Below, one piece after another: positions 42,595 to 50,654 of a stretch of 56,491 nt of DNA (position 1 is its first letter; each line of letters opens with the position of its first letter). The translations under genes and the position numbers were made by a program. Location of the stretch: positions 1-56,491 of the forward strand of contig JAZNEQ010000151.1 in the NCBI GenBank assembly GCA_045588715.1. Reading direction: 5' to 3'. The notes below the pieces were generated by a model. That model saw only the letters and a program-made list of their open reading frames with translations. It was not told the DNA's origin and did no database searches. The stretch comes from Eubacteriales bacterium. Its GTDB lineage: Bacteria; Bacillota; Clostridia; Oscillospirales; CAG-272.

Positions 42595-42623
42595 TTGACA
42601 CGGAAAGAAGGGTGTGCTATAAT
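42595..42623 (+). promoter_or_regulatory. Consensus sigma-A promoter ahead of the GH42-like gene
   Basis: TTGACA (42595-42600), a 17-nt spacer, then TATAAT (42618-42623). Confidence 0.65.
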
Positions 42624-42685: not shown

Positions 42686-44767
42686 ATGTATGCAAAAACA
42701 GTCGCTCGTGACGGATTTGTAAAAATCGACGTAAACGGAGAGGTTTTGGAGCCTACGGCTTTTATGACTTATCGCCCTGATGCGCGTATCTTTTCCGACT
42801 TTAGAAGGGCGGGAGTGCGCTTTGCCAGCTTTGGTGCCTACGCACCCGATCGCGGGATTAACGATTTTGCGGGTCTTTTTCCTATGACAAAGCATTTTTG
42901 GGTAGGGGAAGGAACCTACGATTTTTCACAGGTTGATCACGACCTTGAATTGATCTGCCCCGAGGGAAATGAAATGTACGTTTTTCCCCGTGTGTTTTTG
43001 GACGTTCCCACCTGGTGGGAGGAGAAATATCCAAGTGAGCGTTGCATGGATGACAAAGGCGTGTTGCTTCGTCAGTCCTTTGCCTCAAAAAAATGGAGAG
43101 AGGATGCATCCTGCGCTTTGCGCGCCTTGATGGATCATATCGCAGCCTCCAAGTGGAAGGACTGCGTGGTAGGATACCATATTGCCGCAGGTGGCACCGA
43201 AGAATGGACACCGGAATGTTACGAGGGTGAGATCTTTCGCTTGGATTATTCCGAGGTCAACCGCCAAGGCTTTGTCAAATGGCTTGAGGAAAAATATAAA
43301 GCCGTAAAGGAATTAAACTTGGGCTGGGGGCGGAAGCTTGCATCCTTTGACGACGTCGAAATTCCAAGTGTTCTTGAACGCTGTTATTCCTTGCGCGGTG
43401 TGCTGCGCGATGAAGGTCGCGAGCAAAACGTCATTGATTTTTATGCCTATACCAACGATACCTTTGCCGATGCCATCGTTCATTTTTGCCGCACAGTCAA
43501 GGAGCATTCGGCATCCGCGCGGCTGGCGGGGGCGTTTTACGGCTACAATATTTTCTTGATCCATCCCGATAAGGGACATTTTGCGCTCTCACGGGTGCTG
43601 GAGTCTCCGTACGTCGATTTTATCGCGGCAACGGGCAACCATCCCGAACCGGGAGGGGCGTGGTCAAGCAATGCAACGCTTACAAGTGCCTCGCTTCACA
43701 AAAAGCTCTTTTTCTGCGAGGGAGATATTCGCACGCATCTCACACGCCCTCTGGGTGAGATGCTCCCGCACGTTGTTTCCAAAAACAACTACTACAAAAC
43801 GCCCGTTTGGAAACCGCTTGACAGCAAGGAGCTGACCTTCTCTGCTGTAAAAAAGGCGATCGCCCGTGTACTTACGGAGGGCGTTTCCGTTTGGTGGTTT
43901 GATATGTTCGGGGGCACATTTGACGACCCCGACGTGATGGGGCTGTTTTCGGATTTTTGCATTCGTATGAAAGAGCGGACTTCGGAGCCTCTTCGCCGTG
44001 ACGTTGCGTTTATCGTAGATGAAACGGGTGTGTTCCATATGAAGAGAAACGATTCTCCTGCGGAATACGTCAACAGGCGCCAGATCGACGAGATCTCCCG
44101 CATGGGAGTACCGGTGGATATGCTGGAGGCAAAGGATCTTTTGTGCGATTCGTTTGATGCGGACAAGTACCGTTTGATCATTTTGTCGAGCTTTTTGTCT
44201 CCGGCGGAGGAGATTCGCCACGCAATTGATGAAAAACTACGAAAAAACGGAAGAACCTTGCTTTGGTGTCAGTTTACCCCCGACGATCTGACAGGGGTGG
44301 AGACTGTGTACGATCCGTATGCCCCGAAAGCGCAGGGAATATTCAAAGGGCAAGCGTTTCCCGACGAGGCAGTTGTGTGCGCGCGCTTTTCTGAAGAAAC
44401 GCTAAAAGAAGGGTATCCCTTGGCGTATTTTGACGATGATCAAAAGCCGTCGGTCATGGCGTTTGAAAGAGACGGCTACCGTGAGATCGTCAGCACGGTT
44501 CCGTGTCTTTCAAGCGATCTTATGCGCGAGATCGCAACACTTGCGGGCGCTCACGTTTACACACGGCGTGGCGACGTGATCTATGCGGGCGGAAATTACG
44601 TGGCGATCCACGCGCGAAGTGCGGGAGAAAAGCGCATTTGCTTGCCCCTTCCCGTACGTGCACTTACCGATACCGAAACGGGCGAGCATCCGTTTCTCTT
44701 TAACGGTGTGTATACCGACGTTGAAATGAAAGAGTTTGAGACGCGCATTTATAAAGTCGAGATATAA
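42686..44767 (+). CDS. Putative cytoplasmic glycoside hydrolase, GH42-like (beta-galactosidase fold)
   Basis: 693 aa with no signal peptide. The segment FVKWLEEKYKAVKELNLGWG resembles the GH42 signature. The later segment YRLIILSSFLSPAEE..L..NGRTLLW resembles the GH42 trimerisation/GATase-like domain. Assignment is by eye only. Confidence 0.45.
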   Translation: MYAKTVARDGFVKIDVNGEVLEPTAFMTYRPDARIFSDFRRAGVRFASFGAYAPDRGINDFAGLFPMTKHFWVGEGTYDFSQVDHDLELICPEGNEMYVFPRVFLDVPTWWEEKYPSERCMDDKGVLLRQSFASKKWREDASCALRALMDHIAASKWKDCVVGYHIAAGGTEEWTPECYEGEIFRLDYSEVNRQGFVKWLEEKYKAVKELNLGWGRKLASFDDVEIPSVLERCYSLRGVLRDEGREQNVIDFYAYTNDTFADAIVHFCRTVKEHSASARLAGAFYGYNIFLIHPDKGHFALSRVLESPYVDFIAATGNHPEPGGAWSSNATLTSASLHKKLFFCEGDIRTHLTRPLGEMLPHVVSKNNYYKTPVWKPLDSKELTFSAVKKAIARVLTEGVSVWWFDMFGGTFDDPDVMGLFSDFCIRMKERTSEPLRRDVAFIVDETGVFHMKRNDSPAEYVNRRQIDEISRMGVPVDMLEAKDLLCDSFDADKYRLIILSSFLSPAEEIRHAIDEKLRKNGRTLLWCQFTPDDLTGVETVYDPYAPKAQGIFKGQAFPDEAVVCARFSEETLKEGYPLAYFDDDQKPSVMAFERDGYREIVSTVPCLSSDLMREIATLAGAHVYTRRGDVIYAGGNYVAIHARSAGEKRICLPLPVRALTDTETGEHPFLFNGVYTDVEMKEFETRIYKVEI

Positions 44768-45362: not shown

Positions 45363-45408
45363 TCTGCTTCGTTGCATCAAATATTACGTTCTACAAAGGA
45401 GAGCAAAA

Positions 45409-48400
45409 ATGGATTTCAAAACAAAACGCTTTGTTGCCCGCATGACTTGCGTGCTTGCACTGATCGGTATGCTTTTTGTTGCCTCCTGTGCTCAACCGCC
45501 CGAAGAGGACGGCGGGGAAACGGGAAGTGAAAGCAGCTGCGTGCACGAGATGGGGAATTACGTTGCCAACAACGATGCTGACTGTCAGCATAACATGACC
45601 GAAACGGCGACGTGCTCCAAATGCGGCGAAAAGGATACGCGCGAGCTTGCGAATTCCAAAAATCCAGCCGTCCACACTTCCGAGGAAGTAAAGTATCGGG
45701 AAAACGGCACGGATGCCAATAAGCACGATAAGTATCATGCTTGTTGCCAAGCCATTATCGAAACGGTAGATCATCGCTACGGAGAGGGTGTATCGGATAC
45801 GGAAAACGCGGGTGTTACCGTTTATATCTGTGCCGATTGCGGCGCGGTGAAAAAAACACATGATGGCGCGCATACCCACAAGGCAATACTGGTAGACGCT
45901 ACCCCTGCGGGGTGCACTGCGTTCGGTAATATCGAATATTGGTATTGCGCAGGATGCGATACCCGCTTTGCGGACGGGACCTTGACGACGATCTTGTCCA
46001 AGGAGGATGTGCGCGTCTCTCCCTCGCACAAGGGTGGAACGGCAACCTGTACGGCAGCAGCGGTCTGCACCGCTTGTGGAGAAGCCTACGGGTCTCTCGA
46101 TCCCGAAAACCATGCAAGCGCCTCTTTTGAATACGTCGAAATGTCGACAGATGACGAAAAGCACGAGCGGCGTCACGCCTGCTGTCATACGGTCGTTTCT
46201 ACGGAGGTGCACACGTGGAACAACGGAACTGTCAACGGAGACGTAACCGTTTACACGTGTACCAAATGCGGTAAGGAAAAACGCGAGGCGAATGCTCTTC
46301 ACGTGCATACAAGTACTCATGTCTTGCCCAAGGCGGCAACCTGCACCGAGGAGGGGAATATCGAATACTGGCACTGTGCGGCGTGCGGTAAATACTTCTC
46401 CGATGAAGCACTTACGCAAGAGGTGAGTGCTGCTTCGGTCAAAACAGATCCCGCACACACCTCCACCGAATTTACTTATGCCCCCAATGCGATCGATCCC
46501 GAGCGGCACGATAAAAAGCACGCTTGCTGCGGAACGGTCGTCGAAACGTTGGCACATGCCTACGAGTCTGCAGGCAGCTTTGTGGCAAGCTGCGAGGAAA
46601 ACGGATATACACTTTATCAATGCGTGTGCGGAGAAAGCTATCGGGAATTTACCGCACCCGCTACGGGACACAACGTCGAGCTTTGGAGCTTAACGCTTGA
46701 ATCTCCCAAAACGGGGGCTGATTGCACCTATTTGCAGACCTTTGAGGGTGAATGTTTCTTCTGTGGAGAGGAGCTTGAAAAAACGACCGAGACGGTGCGC
46801 CACAGATATGCGGCAACCGTTGTGACCCAGCCTACCTGTCAGTCGGCAGGCAGCAAGAGCTATGCTTGCTCTTGCGGAGCTAAGCCCACGCCCGATACGG
46901 TTTCCATTCCCAAAAATCCCCATGCACACACGTGGGAAGCGGGAACCACCGAAAACGGCGTTACGACCTATCGGTGTGAAAACTGCACAGCTTCCAAAAC
47001 CTCGGTCGTTTCTCTTGATACACAGGCACAGCTTGACAAAACGCAACTGAACGGAAACGAGATCGTTCTTGGCGACGTTGCCTTGACGCTGGACAATACC
47101 GTACTGGGGCTTATTGATGATAACGGTGACGTTACGCTGTCCGCTGCCCCCGTTACCGAGGGACGCGCGGAGCTTGTCAGCTCTTTGCCGGAGGCGCTTC
47201 GCGCACAGATCACAGATAGCACTCCCATTTATGATTTTTCACTTTCGCAAGGTGGCAATGCCATTTCGAATTTTGAAGAGGGAAGAGTTACCGTTACCAT
47301 TCCCTATACACTCCCTAACGATGCCGATGCCGATCGCGTTGCCGTTTGGTACGTTTCGGCACAAGGCTTGAAATTTTATGCGGCATCCTATTACGGGATC
47401 GGTGAGAATGGCTTTGTAACCTTTGAAGCCGAGCACTTCTCGGTCTACCTTCCCGGAATTGCGCCCGCCGACGAAGCGTGTGCGCTTTACGGGCACAATT
47501 ATACCACAAGCATCACCTCTCCCACCTGCGTTGAGCCGGGGTACACCGAGTATCATTGCCAGCGTTGCTCCCACAGTAAATTGGACGATATTCTGACTGC
47601 ACTTGGACACGCGTACAGTGCGGGGAACGAAACGCCCTCCACTTGCCTTGTCCCCGGAGAGAGAACCTATTCCTGTGCGCGCGATGATTGTGATCATACC
47701 TACAGAAAAACGCTTCCGCTTGCCGCGCATACCTTTGTAAAGGACACAGAGGAAAGTGTAGAAAAGACCTGTACCGAGGATGGACTTGACGTTTACAAAT
47801 GCTCGGTTGCAGGTTGTAACGGCGAAAAGCGCGAAACGCTTACGGCATACGGGCACGATCTTTACGAGGTGTCTATCGGACTTGCCGAAGGCGCACAGAG
47901 CTGTCACGACGGCGTTGCCATCGGCAAAAAATGCCGCAACTGTGATCATACCGAGACCGAGATCTTAACGGGCACTCATGTCGATTACGAAAAATACATG
48001 ACGCCCGAATGTACGTACCCGAGCCACACGGACGAATACGTTTATCTTGGTAGTTATCTTACGGCGGCGGGGATCGCTTACGATGAAGAGCCTTATCTTG
48101 CAATGACGCCGGGATGCGTATGCGGCGAACTTTATCGTTCGGTGAGAATGGAAAACCGCGGTATGGCGTACGGCATGGAGTTGTTCAACGATTTTGTGGA
48201 ATTCAGCCATATGAGCTTTTTTGAGGAAACAAGGGTGCTGACCGCAACGTCAATGCCGATGGGAGGTCCCGGAATGCCCGGCTACACCGAGCCCTCGTCC
48301 TACAGCATTTGCTTTGACGCAAAGATCGTAAAAGGTGAGGGCTGCCACACTACCTTCCGGCTTACGCTTAAGCTTGGGTATAACGAAGCGTCGGGAGAAT

Positions 48401-50052
48401 GCGACGAGGAGATGGTTTTTGTTCTTGCCGACCGAATTGAGCACGGCAACGTCAAAACCGTTGCAACGCTTTCCGATCCCACAAAATCTTGTTATGAAAA
48501 CAGCCGTAACGAGGGTCTTACCGTCACCAGGTATTGCCTTGCATGCGATTCGCTGATCGAAACCTTTTCGGAATACCTCCCCAACTCCTCCTCGCACTAT
48601 TTCGTTGACAAGGAGACCTTGGAGCACAAGCACGATCCGAGCGATCCTTATTATTGTGTGCGTGTCAACGTAAGCGAGTGCCCCTGCGGACAAATTCAAT
48701 GGCGTGATTACCGCGCCAACAATGGCTCTTATACAACGACGTATGTGGGAAATACAGCAGTTTACTCCTGTAATTCCTGCCATTTCATTTACGCGGAGTG
48801 TGAAAATGCGGTTGCACAGGATGCGGAGGATTGCCGCGAGACCAGAACGGATCATCTCTATTTTGATTGCGAGAGCGTCAATAATTTTGAAAGCTGCGAA
48901 AAGACACTTGTAAACCTCGACTACGACACAGCATGGCACGCAAGCTATCGCAACGAAACCAACAAAAATGCCCCGGAGGCGACCGATCAGACGTGCTGCT
49001 ATTATTACTACGATCGATTGGTTTGCGAGAGGTGCGGATTTGTAACGCACAACTCTGTCGACGGTTATCGAATGATTCACGAGCTTGTCGAAAACAGCGT
49101 TACCGATGCCCGCAAAAACGTGACCAAGACCACGACGTGCACGCGTGACGGTTGTGAATATCTTTGCATTGAACTGAGGGACGCCGACGGAAACCTGCTG
49201 CGTAGGTATTGCGAGGCGCCGGATCACACACAGGGAGAACTTTGCATCTCTCTTACGGCAAATAACGTGACAAACGGAGTCCTTCGTCCTACCATAGAGC
49301 GTGAGGAATATTATGATCTTGAAACGGGTGCGGCTAAGAGATGGTATCAATTCGTTTATACCTACGCGACAGATCCGATGAATGGCTGCATCCAAACGCA
49401 AACGTTTACCAATTCCAATGGTGACTGCGAGGTTCATGAAAGTCCCTGCTGTCTTTACGATATTCATGTAAGTCAAGAAGGCAACTGTGTGCAGGATGCA
49501 TACAGTAAATACGTGTGCTCACTTTGCGGTGGGGAGCGGATCGATTCTATGGGGAGCAGTTTTGGACATTCGTTTGGAGAGTATTACACGGTAAAGCAAA
49601 CCGATGGTAACTCTGATATGTATTTTCCTTATTACAAATGTGAGGTGTGCGGGATCTATCGTAAAAATACTGATAACTATTCGCCGATAAGTGTTACACA
49701 GGTAGGTGTTGAGGACGGTGTTGTAACGATTGCTTACCGCGATTACAATCAAGGGGAGGCAGCTCCGCTGGAGGAACCTTGTTTCTTCGTTGCCTATCAA
49801 TTCCGTACGTCGGATGAAGCACTTCGCGTTGATGAGATCGTTGACGGATATATTCCCCAGCCGTTGGTTGATTATTTGGAGGGAATTGACGTTACGGACA
49901 ACGGTGAAGGACTTTTGACCTATCAGCTTTCAGACGTTGCCGCGGCACTCGAAGTCTTGACACCCTTAGAAGACGGATACGTTTATAAGGTTTGCCTAAT
50001 GGTTGGAACCGACCCCGAATATGCAAGCTATATCTTAGTTCCGCTTGATTAA
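45409..50052 (+). CDS. Giant Cys-rich repeat lipoprotein (1547 aa), unknown function
   Basis: I take the start at 45409 (GGAG plus 7 nt), which gives MDFKTKRFVARMTCVLALIGMLFVASC with lipobox VASC. About 20 CxxC/CxC knuckles occur in degenerate 35-45 aa modules, with a Cys-free central segment. The listed start at 45271 would overlap the upstream gene. Confidence 0.8.
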   Translation: MDFKTKRFVARMTCVLALIGMLFVASCAQPPEEDGGETGSESSCVHEMGNYVANNDADCQHNMTETATCSKCGEKDTRELANSKNPAVHTSEEVKYRENGTDANKHDKYHACCQAIIETVDHRYGEGVSDTENAGVTVYICADCGAVKKTHDGAHTHKAILVDATPAGCTAFGNIEYWYCAGCDTRFADGTLTTILSKEDVRVSPSHKGGTATCTAAAVCTACGEAYGSLDPENHASASFEYVEMSTDDEKHERRHACCHTVVSTEVHTWNNGTVNGDVTVYTCTKCGKEKREANALHVHTSTHVLPKAATCTEEGNIEYWHCAACGKYFSDEALTQEVSAASVKTDPAHTSTEFTYAPNAIDPERHDKKHACCGTVVETLAHAYESAGSFVASCEENGYTLYQCVCGESYREFTAPATGHNVELWSLTLESPKTGADCTYLQTFEGECFFCGEELEKTTETVRHRYAATVVTQPTCQSAGSKSYACSCGAKPTPDTVSIPKNPHAHTWEAGTTENGVTTYRCENCTASKTSVVSLDTQAQLDKTQLNGNEIVLGDVALTLDNTVLGLIDDNGDVTLSAAPVTEGRAELVSSLPEALRAQITDSTPIYDFSLSQGGNAISNFEEGRVTVTIPYTLPNDADADRVAVWYVSAQGLKFYAASYYGIGENGFVTFEAEHFSVYLPGIAPADEACALYGHNYTTSITSPTCVEPGYTEYHCQRCSHSKLDDILTALGHAYSAGNETPSTCLVPGERTYSCARDDCDHTYRKTLPLAAHTFVKDTEESVEKTCTEDGLDVYKCSVAGCNGEKRETLTAYGHDLYEVSIGLAEGAQSCHDGVAIGKKCRNCDHTETEILTGTHVDYEKYMTPECTYPSHTDEYVYLGSYLTAAGIAYDEEPYLAMTPGCVCGELYRSVRMENRGMAYGMELFNDFVEFSHMSFFEETRVLTATSMPMGGPGMPGYTEPSSYSICFDAKIVKGEGCHTTFRLTLKLGYNEASGECDEEMVFVLADRIEHGNVKTVATLSDPTKSCYENSRNEGLTVTRYCLACDSLIETFSEYLPNSSSHYFVDKETLEHKHDPSDPYYCVRVNVSECPCGQIQWRDYRANNGSYTTTYVGNTAVYSCNSCHFIYAECENAVAQDAEDCRETRTDHLYFDCESVNNFESCEKTLVNLDYDTAWHASYRNETNKNAPEATDQTCCYYYYDRLVCERCGFVTHNSVDGYRMIHELVENSVTDARKNVTKTTTCTRDGCEYLCIELRDADGNLLRRYCEAPDHTQGELCISLTANNVTNGVLRPTIEREEYYDLETGAAKRWYQFVYTYATDPMNGCIQTQTFTNSNGDCEVHESPCCLYDIHVSQEGNCVQDAYSKYVCSLCGGERIDSMGSSFGHSFGEYYTVKQTDGNSDMYFPYYKCEVCGIYRKNTDNYSPISVTQVGVEDGVVTIAYRDYNQGEAAPLEEPCFFVAYQFRTSDEALRVDEIVDGYIPQPLVDYLEGIDVTDNGEGLLTYQLSDVAAALEVLTPLEDGYVYKVCLMVGTDPEYASYILVPLD

Positions 50053-50062
50053 AAAACCAAAG

Positions 50063-50117
50063 AACAAAACATATGCCGCCCAAACGCATTTTGCGTTTGG
50101 GCGGCATATGTTTTGTT
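50063..50117. terminator. Perfect 25-bp hairpin shared by two convergent genes
   Basis: AACAAAACATATGCCGCCCAAACGC (50063-50087) pairs perfectly with 50093-50117 around a 5-nt loop. Confidence 0.8.
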
Positions 50118-50535
50118 AAGTCTTTTTAGGTGTTCGCTTGTTGCAACGCGGGCAGGTGACAATGATCTCTCCCTTGCCCTTGGGAACGCGAAGGACGGCT
50201 TTGCAGGAGGGACATTTAAAATAGCAGTGCGTCTTTTTGTCGCGCTTTTTGTTTTTTCTCAGCTTTCTGGCGTTTTGCGGCTTTTGCTTGATGCGTAAAT
50301 ATCTTTCAAGCTCACGTCGGCGGCGCGGGATGTTTTTTGAAAACACGCGAAAATTTGACCAGATCAAAATCACAAAAGCAAGGATGCCAAACAAAAAGCC
50401 CACAACGGGGATATAAGCAAGAAGCAAAAAGACGAGTGCGGTCATCAGCAAAACCATATTTAACTCATCCGTTCCGTACCTTCCGTACATCCACCTTGAA
50501 ACGGCGTTTCCGATACGCTTGAAAAGCTTCCTCAT
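50116..50535 (-). CDS. Membrane-anchored zinc-ribbon protein
   Basis: I take the start at 50535 (MRKLFKRIG, GGAGA plus 7 nt). It has two TM helices, a very basic linker, and a C-terminal CPSC...CPRC ribbon. Confidence 0.65.
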   Translation of the reverse strand: MRKLFKRIGNAVSRWMYGRYGTDELNMVLLMTALVFLLLAYIPVVGFLFGILAFVILIWSNFRVFSKNIPRRRRELERYLRIKQKPQNARKLRKNKKRDKKTHCYFKCPSCKAVLRVPKGKGEIIVTCPRCNKRTPKKT

Positions 50536-50654
50536 TTTTATTTCTCCTTTTCGGTATTCCCGCAAAAAATCTTTTCTTTCTTTATAATATCACACTTTTT
50601 TAAACCGAACGCAAACTTTTGATGAGAATTTTAAAATATATTGCTTTCTTTTTC

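Follow-up and report, generated by a model that had tools for sequence, protein, structure and literature searches.

The closest described relatives of the protein reported here are two domains of the IgA protease of Thomasclavelia ramosa (IgAse, or ThomasA), known as ZBD1/ZBD2, CTD2/CTD4 and beta3/4/6 (PMC12237041, PMC12415215, PMC12402451). ZBD1 (129 aa, ∼110 Å) and ZBD2 were modelled as strings of antiparallel sheets, three strands each, that are linked through putative tetrahedral Zn sites of either 2His+2Cys or 3Cys+1His, and IgAse has 24 Cys but no disulfides in its resolved parts or in the predicted ZBD models (PMC12237041). CTD2 and CTD4 have been termed "metal-associated periscope domains"; for CTD2 on its own, a rod at full extension is the sole shape that agrees with small-angle X-ray scattering (PMC12415215). 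Here we describe a 1547-aa lipoprotein made almost wholly of ZBD-type modules, a new architecture, encoded on a 56,491-nt stretch of DNA (the window) from an Eubacteriales bacterium (contig JAZNEQ010000151.1, assembly GCA_045588715.1). The gene appears to specify a lipoprotein exposed on the cells of a gut bacterium that is uncultured, forms spores and resembles Oscillospiraceae. On balance, we read its product as a rod, stapled by zinc and anchored in the membrane, which crosses the Gram-positive wall and exposes a non-enzymatic distal half that evolves fast and is probably a binding surface.

Protein architecture

The open reading frame is intact, and its translation contains 87 Cys (5.62%) and 54 His; across 18 further genes in the window, the mean is 2.0% Cys. 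An earlier sequence-only reading of this DNA had put the Cys count at about 87 (∼5.6%) and had proposed a lipobox (VASC), about 20 Cys/His modules, a Cys-free segment at residues 531–689 and no anchor besides the lipid, all of which are borne out below. The gene and the parts of its product are the following.

45409–50052, forward strand: coding sequence of the Cys/His-module lipoprotein, 1547 aa, with an AGGAG ribosome-binding site ∼7 nt before the ATG at 45409 and the stop codon at 50050–50052
45409–45489, forward strand: lipoprotein signal peptide, residues 1–27 (n-region KTKR..R, h-region, lipobox V-A-S-C27)
45538–46998, forward strand: anchor-proximal module array, residues 44–530, with ∼13 putative four-ligand sites
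45742–46077, forward strand: super-repeat, residues 112–223, missing from 6–7 of 11 orthologs (gap fraction 0.60)
46285–46671, forward strand: super-repeat, residues 293–421, a homolog of IgAse ZBD1/CTD2
46999–47475, forward strand: Cys-free domain, residues 531–689, mainly β with short helices
47476–48006, forward strand: four consecutive canonical C3H (3Cys+1His) modules, residues 690–866, after invariant C691 and H696
48007–49683, forward strand: distal β-rich half, residues 867–1425, with long β-hairpins and further conserved Cys/His sites
49684–50049, forward strand: C-terminal Cys-poor domain, residues 1426–1547, farthest from the lipid anchor (pLDDT, the score of the predicted local distance difference test, ∼80–90)

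The signal peptide, MDFKTKRFVARMTCVLALIGMLFVAS followed by C27, has a charged n-region, an h-region and a lipobox that fits [LVI][ASTVI][GAS]C (MDFKTKRFVAR-MTCVLALIGMLF-VAS-C27). Comparison was made with 11 full-length orthologs (1298–1789 aa, 30–44% identity) from uncultured gut Clostridia; Cys27 is invariant, and a lipobox of the form [LFV][ATV][SAG]C is present in 11/11. By textbook rules, the protein is a predicted Lgt/LspA-type bacterial lipoprotein. The automatic gene call (P0001, 1536 aa) begins at Met12 and thereby loses the K/R-rich n-region. We looked for an LPXTG motif with its tail, a second hydrophobic segment, SLH domains and any other Pfam anchor and found none; an internal SPKTG at residue 432 has no sorting tail and hence is no sortase signal.

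An iterated hidden Markov model detected 13 full module copies and five partial ones that comprise the hairpin plus CxxC, and three "H-x3-H-x-CC-x7-H" elements were identified by eye, giving ∼21 modules in total. A full module spans ∼41 residues and follows the pattern [T/S]C-x3-G-x3-Y-x-C-x2-4-C(G)-x11-14-(G)H. This pattern is not due to chance, and composition does not explain the motif counts: CxxC occurs 15 times against 4.8 ± 2.0 in 2000 composition-preserving shuffles, and for the complete C..CxxC..H motif the corresponding figures are 11 and 1.4 ± 1.3, with none of the 2000 shuffles reaching either observed value. Three Cys are invariant over the 12 aligned full copies within the protein, and module-to-module identity is only 10–33%. 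Tandem Repeats Finder detected no DNA-level tandem repeats in the gene, so the modules are old and diverged.

The anchor-proximal array combines "GNIEYWxC" C3H modules, "H-x3-H-x-CC..H" modules, hairpin CxxC modules with HxH, and canonical C3H modules, and is predicted by AlphaFold2 (AF2) as short β-strands grouped by three (pLDDT ∼70–85). Its super-repeat 293–421 contains 14 invariant Cys/His. Cys is absent between C526 and C691, so the Cys-free segment is real, and AF2 folds this domain confidently (pLDDT 85–91). In the four modules that follow, 12/12 module Cys are invariant among orthologs, and AF2 places three strands in each module of residues 697–866, its CxxC sitting where the chain turns from strand 2 to strand 3, as judged from secondary structure only. 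The distal half includes further canonical modules at 1189–1231 and 1353–1394.

Invariant C523 and C526 (46975–46986) lie just before the Cys-free domain, and invariant H676, C691 and H696 (47434–47496) at its far end; they belong to no complete module of their own. Speculatively, a joint site made of these residues might clamp both domain ends; the domain would then be a lateral insertion in the rod.

Relationship to the IgA protease domains

In a phmmer search of the Protein Data Bank (PDB), residues 293–421 matched positions 847–979 of 9qa6_A (E = 3.2e-5). A nine-ortholog profile (residues 292–424) matched 9qa6_A at 849–978 with E = 5.1e-13 and 52.5 bits, a match that covers the whole of ZBD1 and is the only significant one in the PDB. 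Three module types stand in identical order in both proteins: "C..CxxC" with GN-x-x-Y-(Y/W)-x-C, "H-x-H-x-C..C..H" and "C..CxC..H". Both are extracytoplasmic, with predicted three-stranded sheets, Cys/His quartets and modules that adjoin the cell anchor, so that the orientation of the lipoprotein resembles that of IgAse; the IgAse anchor is a sortase signal at the C-terminus. From its sequence, its ligand pattern and its predicted secondary structure, we assign the lipoprotein to the IgAse ZBD/CTD2–CTD4 module family.

The use made of the modules differs. IgAse is a metalloprotease whose C-terminal tail, anchored by sortase, carries two short ZBDs (129 and 70 aa) as accessories, whereas in the lipoprotein the modules make up most of the 1547 aa, an enzyme domain is absent and the anchor is an N-terminal lipid. 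The array of the lipoprotein, unlike that of IgAse, is interrupted by a Cys-free domain, and canonical C3H sites dominate in it, whereas those of IgAse are mostly 2His+2Cys.

The sequence-only reading had not recognised the repeat as a named domain. This holds for the databases: Pfam, in a copy that did not include PF26182, PF27065, PF26743 and PF25997, and NCBIfam, in the copy searched, offered no dedicated model for the module when searched with the protein, pure-array homologs and orthologs. It does not hold for the literature, where the repeat was described in 2025 as ZBD1/ZBD2 (PMC12237041) and CTD2/CTD4 (PMC12415215). The objection foreseen in the sequence-only reading, a match to an extracellular domain family described before, thus applies in part, the function of that family being proposed and not shown. 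Precomputed assignments to PF26182, PF27065, PF26743 and PF25997 exist for the partial homologs P0026, P0030–P0077, P0043, P0050, P0052 and P0098, and for no ortholog. A literature search on extracellular zinc finger or zinc ribbon repeats returned nothing besides the three IgA-protease papers, and the size of the family and its lack of any profile appear to be undescribed in the literature searched.

Structure prediction and fold searches

AF2 models of both halves are all-β, with pLDDT 75 for the N-terminal and 81 for the C-terminal half. Foldseek searches of both models against the PDB, and of the C-terminal model against BFVD, gave only meaningless alignments (TM ≤ 0.12, root-mean-square deviation 20–80 Å), to propellers, DDB1, Tc/RHS shells and similar folds; whole multi-domain rods are a poor Foldseek query. 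A single viral match with a Foldseek probability of 1.0 was an SLH-domain fragment, which probably carries the same modules.

The Cys-free domain has no Pfam match, and the best hit of its profile among PDB sequences was the GroEL apical domain (E = 0.23), judged to be noise. Searched against a 5.8-billion-protein set, the profile (residues 527–690) recovered only four short fragments and missed every known ortholog, an outcome that seems to reflect the word-index step of the search and not biology.

Conservation among orthologs

Cys is the most conserved residue type, with 60/87 (69%) identical in at least nine of the 11 orthologs, so the lack of Cys conservation that the sequence-only reading had raised as a possible objection was not found. 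Most of the non-conserved Cys sit in residues 112–223, a whole-module indel. Trp ranks second (nine Trp, 56%) and His third, conserved at 43% of positions; the remaining residue types are conserved at 5–34%, mostly 5–20%.

Mean identity varies strongly by region. It is highest in the Cys-free domain (0.49) and lies at 0.46–0.49 for this domain and the stalk together; the distal half (867–1425) diverges faster than the stalk (0.25–0.34), and the C-terminal domain, at 0.23, is undercut only by the signal peptide (0.22).

Super-repeat 112–223 is present in the window protein and in 4–5 orthologs, and its gain or loss is copy-number variation in the stalk. Most orthologs carry an additional N-terminal module, "C-x-H-x-WGEW...PTC..AG..TRTC..C", that the window protein does not have. 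The orthologs are single-copy.

Distribution of the module

A whole-protein search yielded >4000 relatives among 8000 candidates scored, most of which share only the modules, and these occur beside cohesin, dockerin, SLH, BspA-type LRR, Big_2, transglutaminase and DUF6273 domains. Relatives are Oscillospiraceae, Acutalibacteraceae and Clostridia metagenome-assembled genomes (MAGs) from the gut. We then ran a 41-position profile, made from the 12 best modules of the lipoprotein, against 1.84 billion representative proteins. At E ≤ 1e-10 it matched 17,021 protein clusters, at E ≤ 1e-30 still 3,332, and one protein contained as many as 83 matched stretches; the 36,347 clusters at E ≤ 0.001 are an upper bound, as the low-score tail may include eukaryotic C2H2 arrays. 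The best 147 matches were read, and all are of bacterial type, mostly with signal peptides. Pure arrays follow the pattern "...PTCTEAGxxTYTCxxCGxxYTExIxALGH...". Source names of module proteins include "hypothetical", "transglutaminase domain-containing" and, wrongly, "RPC12/RpoP", and some of the proteins come from rumen MAGs of Spirochaetales and Prevotella.

Acutalibacteraceae MAGs have module-bearing forward-strand reading frames at loci L013 (5250–13046), L014 (1287–8912) and L015 (1–2700). The L013 and L014 proteins are secreted and ∼2500–2600 aa long, and the L015 frame, of 900 aa, is truncated by the contig end. All three share the conserved C-terminal tail "...C-x-H-x-CHK-x-GFMGFIWKIVRFFWKLFKMNPVCDCGxKHY", a hydrophobic or amphipathic stretch flanked by Cys/His that might represent a kind of C-terminal anchor or sorting signal not yet recognised.

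Tentatively, and as an outside chance, the module could mark a superfamily, very large and so far uncatalogued, of zinc-finger-like extracellular domains in anaerobic gut and rumen bacteria, with at least thousands of protein clusters and dozens of copies in single proteins, whose rods depend on zinc and redox state and which possibly shares ancestry with C2H2 fingers. The signature T-x-x-G-x3-Y-x-C-x2-C-G and the C-x2-C-x12-H spacing suggest that the module and the C2H2 hairpin may have a common ancestor. Zinc–thiolate sites are textbook intracellular features; here they would apparently be the chief principle by which an entire class of bacterial surface proteins in anoxic habitats is built. 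Should this hold, host zinc withholding or oxidants would free the zinc and collapse the rods, and if the rods depend on zinc and reduced thiols, the nutritional immunity and oxidative bursts of the host would directly affect how the surface of gut anaerobes is built.

The lipoprotein is a near-pure example and a handy source of constructs, residues 690–866 offering four clean C3H modules; such constructs could provide the experimental validation of zinc binding and fold that is lacking according to both 2025 IgA-protease papers. With a dedicated profile, thousands of "hypothetical protein" labels could be replaced, and spurious labels as eukaryotic zinc fingers or "RpoP" would disappear.

Proposed function

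After export and lipidation at Cys27, a 1520-aa ectodomain would form a chain of three-stranded β-sheet modules, each junction closed by one tetrahedral metal site, 3Cys+1His in canonical modules and 2Cys+2His in variants. The metal sites would stand in for a hydrophobic core or disulfides and keep the sheets joined at their ends, giving a stiff and extended rod. If array 44–530 scales like ZBD1 (129 residues, ∼11 nm), it would measure ∼40 nm and so be long enough to cross a Gram-positive wall, making a stalk through and beyond the peptidoglycan. This stalk would present the Cys-free domain, four more modules and the rapidly diverging β-rich distal half at the surface. The distal part would most probably be an adhesin-like binding surface exposed to host, phage or immune pressure, and an adhesin role, which the sequence-only reading had listed, is plausible.

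Several points weigh against this proposal. Crystal structures and the cryo-EM map of IgAse leave the ZBDs unresolved, and metal analysis is unreported (PMC12237041, PMC12415215). The shape and length of the rod would be extrapolated from a 129-residue domain, and the idea of a binding surface draws on exclusion and evolutionary rate. The predicted TM-score (pTM) of 0.40 signifies only that the packing between modules is unpredicted; this value and the lack of compact fold matches for our AF2 models agree with a rod without demonstrating it. The ligand quartets given below are grouped by sequence order, not by 3-D geometry. The distal part (867–1547) may hold a role hidden from the uninformative Foldseek searches, and a comparison of ortholog neighbourhoods revealed no conserved partner or neighbouring gene and no ligand.

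A smaller share of our confidence goes to a purely architectural envelope part: a wall-spanning spacer or ruler, or an S-layer-like or spore-associated element, with nothing bound at its tip. It would account for the facts that no recognisable binding or catalytic domain was found anywhere in the protein, that the module is a generic filler in thousands of proteins and that the gene lies amid housekeeping and sporulation genes. We consider it unlikely, as the distal half and C-terminal domain evolve fastest and the internal Cys-free domain is best conserved, a distribution that fits exposed, interacting regions better than a passive strut; moreover, the single-copy orthologs have no conserved envelope-gene neighbours.

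Metal sites versus disulfides

In 4878 module instances from 282 proteins, the consensus is C8 (100%), G12 (97%), C18 (100%), C21 (99%) and H34 (96%). Variant modules lose the first Cys and gain a His, so that four ligands are kept. The invariant Cys/His of residues 284–421, taken in sequence order, parse exactly into four sets of four: C284, C287, H298 and H300; C312, C323, C326 and H350; H366, C373, C374 and H382; and C395, C405, C407 and H421. Over the whole protein, we estimate roughly 20–25 such sets. Metal seems the better reading than disulfides because the invariant Cys are odd in number (three) and accompanied by one His, and because the variants keep four ligands; the metal is most likely Zn(II).

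The sequence-only reading had proposed an extracytoplasmic array of "metal-binding or disulfide-stabilised" mini-domains, of which the lipid-anchored extracytoplasmic array stands, with metal favoured over disulfides. Modules held by disulfides, as in extracellular Cys-knot or EGF-like mini-domains, could be expected from extracytoplasmic, Cys-rich sequences, and a metal measurement for the family is not on record. The hosts are strict gut anaerobes, in which extracellular thiols stay reduced, and this speaks against disulfides, as do the odd invariant Cys count, the His present in 96% of instances at a fixed distance and the exchange of Cys for His with four ligands retained. Since IgAse likewise shows no disulfides in its resolved parts or ZBD models despite its 24 Cys (PMC12237041), we hold a disulfide-based fold to be improbable.

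That the protein sequesters metal is a suggestion of the sequence-only reading; we give very little credence to a sequestering or buffering role, be it as a metallothionein-like sink for zinc or heavy metals or as a zinc scavenger. The ∼20–25 potential Cys/His sites on one surface polypeptide would suit such a role. The sites are, however, closed four-ligand sets in conserved β-hairpin scaffolds (G12, aromatic 16, CxxCG), as is typical of structural Zn with very slow exchange; the same module is a filler in thousands of proteins whose functional domains are unrelated, among them enzymes and scaffoldins where sequestration would be senseless, and no zinc-uptake or Zur-type genes are adjacent.

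Electron transfer by tunnelling has a limit of ∼1.4 nm. The electron or metal handling also put forward earlier, here as an extracellular conduit of rubredoxin-like Fe(Cys)3His centres, can practically be dismissed even though CxxCG is also the rubredoxin knuckle and the host is anaerobic, as one site per ∼40-residue module means a spacing of ∼3.7 nm on the ZBD1 scale (PMC12237041), far above that limit, the four-ligand sets are closed and of structural type, each site lacks a second CxxC knuckle, and haem, Fe–S or flavin motifs and partner genes are absent.

Genomic context

Two regulatory features frame the gene.

42595–42623, forward strand: sigma-70-like promoter, 12/12 consensus with TG extension (a consensus match only), upstream of the GH42-like gene
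50069–50111, no strand assigned: bidirectional intrinsic-terminator-like hairpin, 20-bp stem with 11 GC pairs and T-runs on both sides

The promoter is followed by the GH42-like gene (42686–44767), a DUF5662 gene and the lipoprotein gene, whose ATG lies 46 nt after the DUF5662 stop, and there is no comparable promoter directly before 45409. The transcript that includes the lipoprotein gene likely starts at 42595–42623, and promoter and terminator together suggest a three-gene transcript, GH42-like/DUF5662/lipoprotein.

The hairpin closes both the lipoprotein gene and a convergent gene (50116–50565, reverse strand) for a small, 149-aa membrane protein whose C-terminus carries a CxxC...CxxC zinc ribbon; this protein has a weak Pfam Zn_ribbon match and is 80% identical in a close relative, Oscillospiraceae bacterium SIG682 (L004). 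Two antisense reading frames within the lipoprotein gene (45391–46671, 426 aa, and 48250–49476, 408 aa, both on the reverse strand) are most likely by-products of its codon composition.

In SIG682, the syntenic ortholog of the lipoprotein is 51% identical and six flanking genes are 72–94% identical, which suggests surface-type evolution of the lipoprotein relative to its neighbours. The GH42-like/DUF5662/lipoprotein arrangement is conserved in this relative only. Distant orthologs lie amid unrelated genes, and for this reason we rejected a functional link to the GH42-like glycosidase. The window around the gene also encodes SpoIVA, enolase and PheST, and the presence of SpoIVA marks the host as an endospore former.

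Comparison with known systems

The hairpin T-x-x-G-x-x-x-Y-x-C-x2-C-G-x-x-(F/Y) and the C-x2-C-x12-H spacing are common to the module and the C2H2 zinc finger. The two differ in that the fourth ligand of the lipoprotein module is an upstream Cys, not a second His on a helix, and in that the modules are predicted to be all-β without a helix and are extracytoplasmic. A classical C2H2 finger was rejected on the all-β prediction and on the absence of any Pfam C2H2 match at E ≤ 10 on the window protein; within it, only C284–H304 fits the regular expression C-x2-4-C-x12-H-x3-5-H. Because hairpin signature and spacing are shared, the module profile cross-matches designed and natural eukaryotic C2H2 arrays (Aart, E = 2e-9). 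The same likeness explains why Pfam finger models from eukaryotes (ZNF451, KIN17, zf-met, zf_UBZ and others) spuriously pass whole-protein cut-offs on the bacterial arrays P0012–P0087, by cumulative scores and mostly with no single stretch significant. Either annotation is systematically misled here, or the cross-matching hints at a common origin.

Zinc ribbons (the TFIIS C-terminal domain, RPB9, RpoP/RPC12) differ from the modules, which are tandem and extracellular. A classical ribbon, which has two CxxC(H) knuckles supplied by two β-hairpins, was rejected, each module having one CxxC knuckle and, as its other ligands, a lone Cys and a lone His, and matches of the module profile to the ribbon structures of TFIIS, RPB9 and RPC10 were not significant (E ≥ 0.13).

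EGF-like arrays, to which the IgAse authors drew the comparison (PMC12237041), resemble the lipoprotein as extracellular, core-less modules of ∼40 residues that build stiff rods. The two kinds of module are not homologous: EGF modules rely on three disulfides with or without Ca2+, whereas those of the lipoprotein apparently rely on Zn–thiolate sites, which suit an anoxic habitat.

Periscope proteins and the single-layer β-sheet rods of SasG and Aap (G5-E repeats) are likewise long surface proteins of core-less β-sheet repeats in variable number. In Aap, Zn is bound between protomers through His, Asp and Glu, not in intramolecular Cys/His sites (PMC12415215). The lipoprotein family varies in repeat number in the same way, with residues 112–223 missing in 6–7/11 orthologs and lengths of 1298–1789 aa. 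Canonical periscope proteins are defined by repeat units near-identical in DNA and by an LPXTG wall anchor, whereas the modules of the lipoprotein are diverged and its anchor is a lipid. Because its repeats are not near-identical and LPXTG is absent, it is not a canonical periscope protein, yet it would work like a periscope-type stalk, sharing with that family the proposed role of projecting a distal part from the cell.

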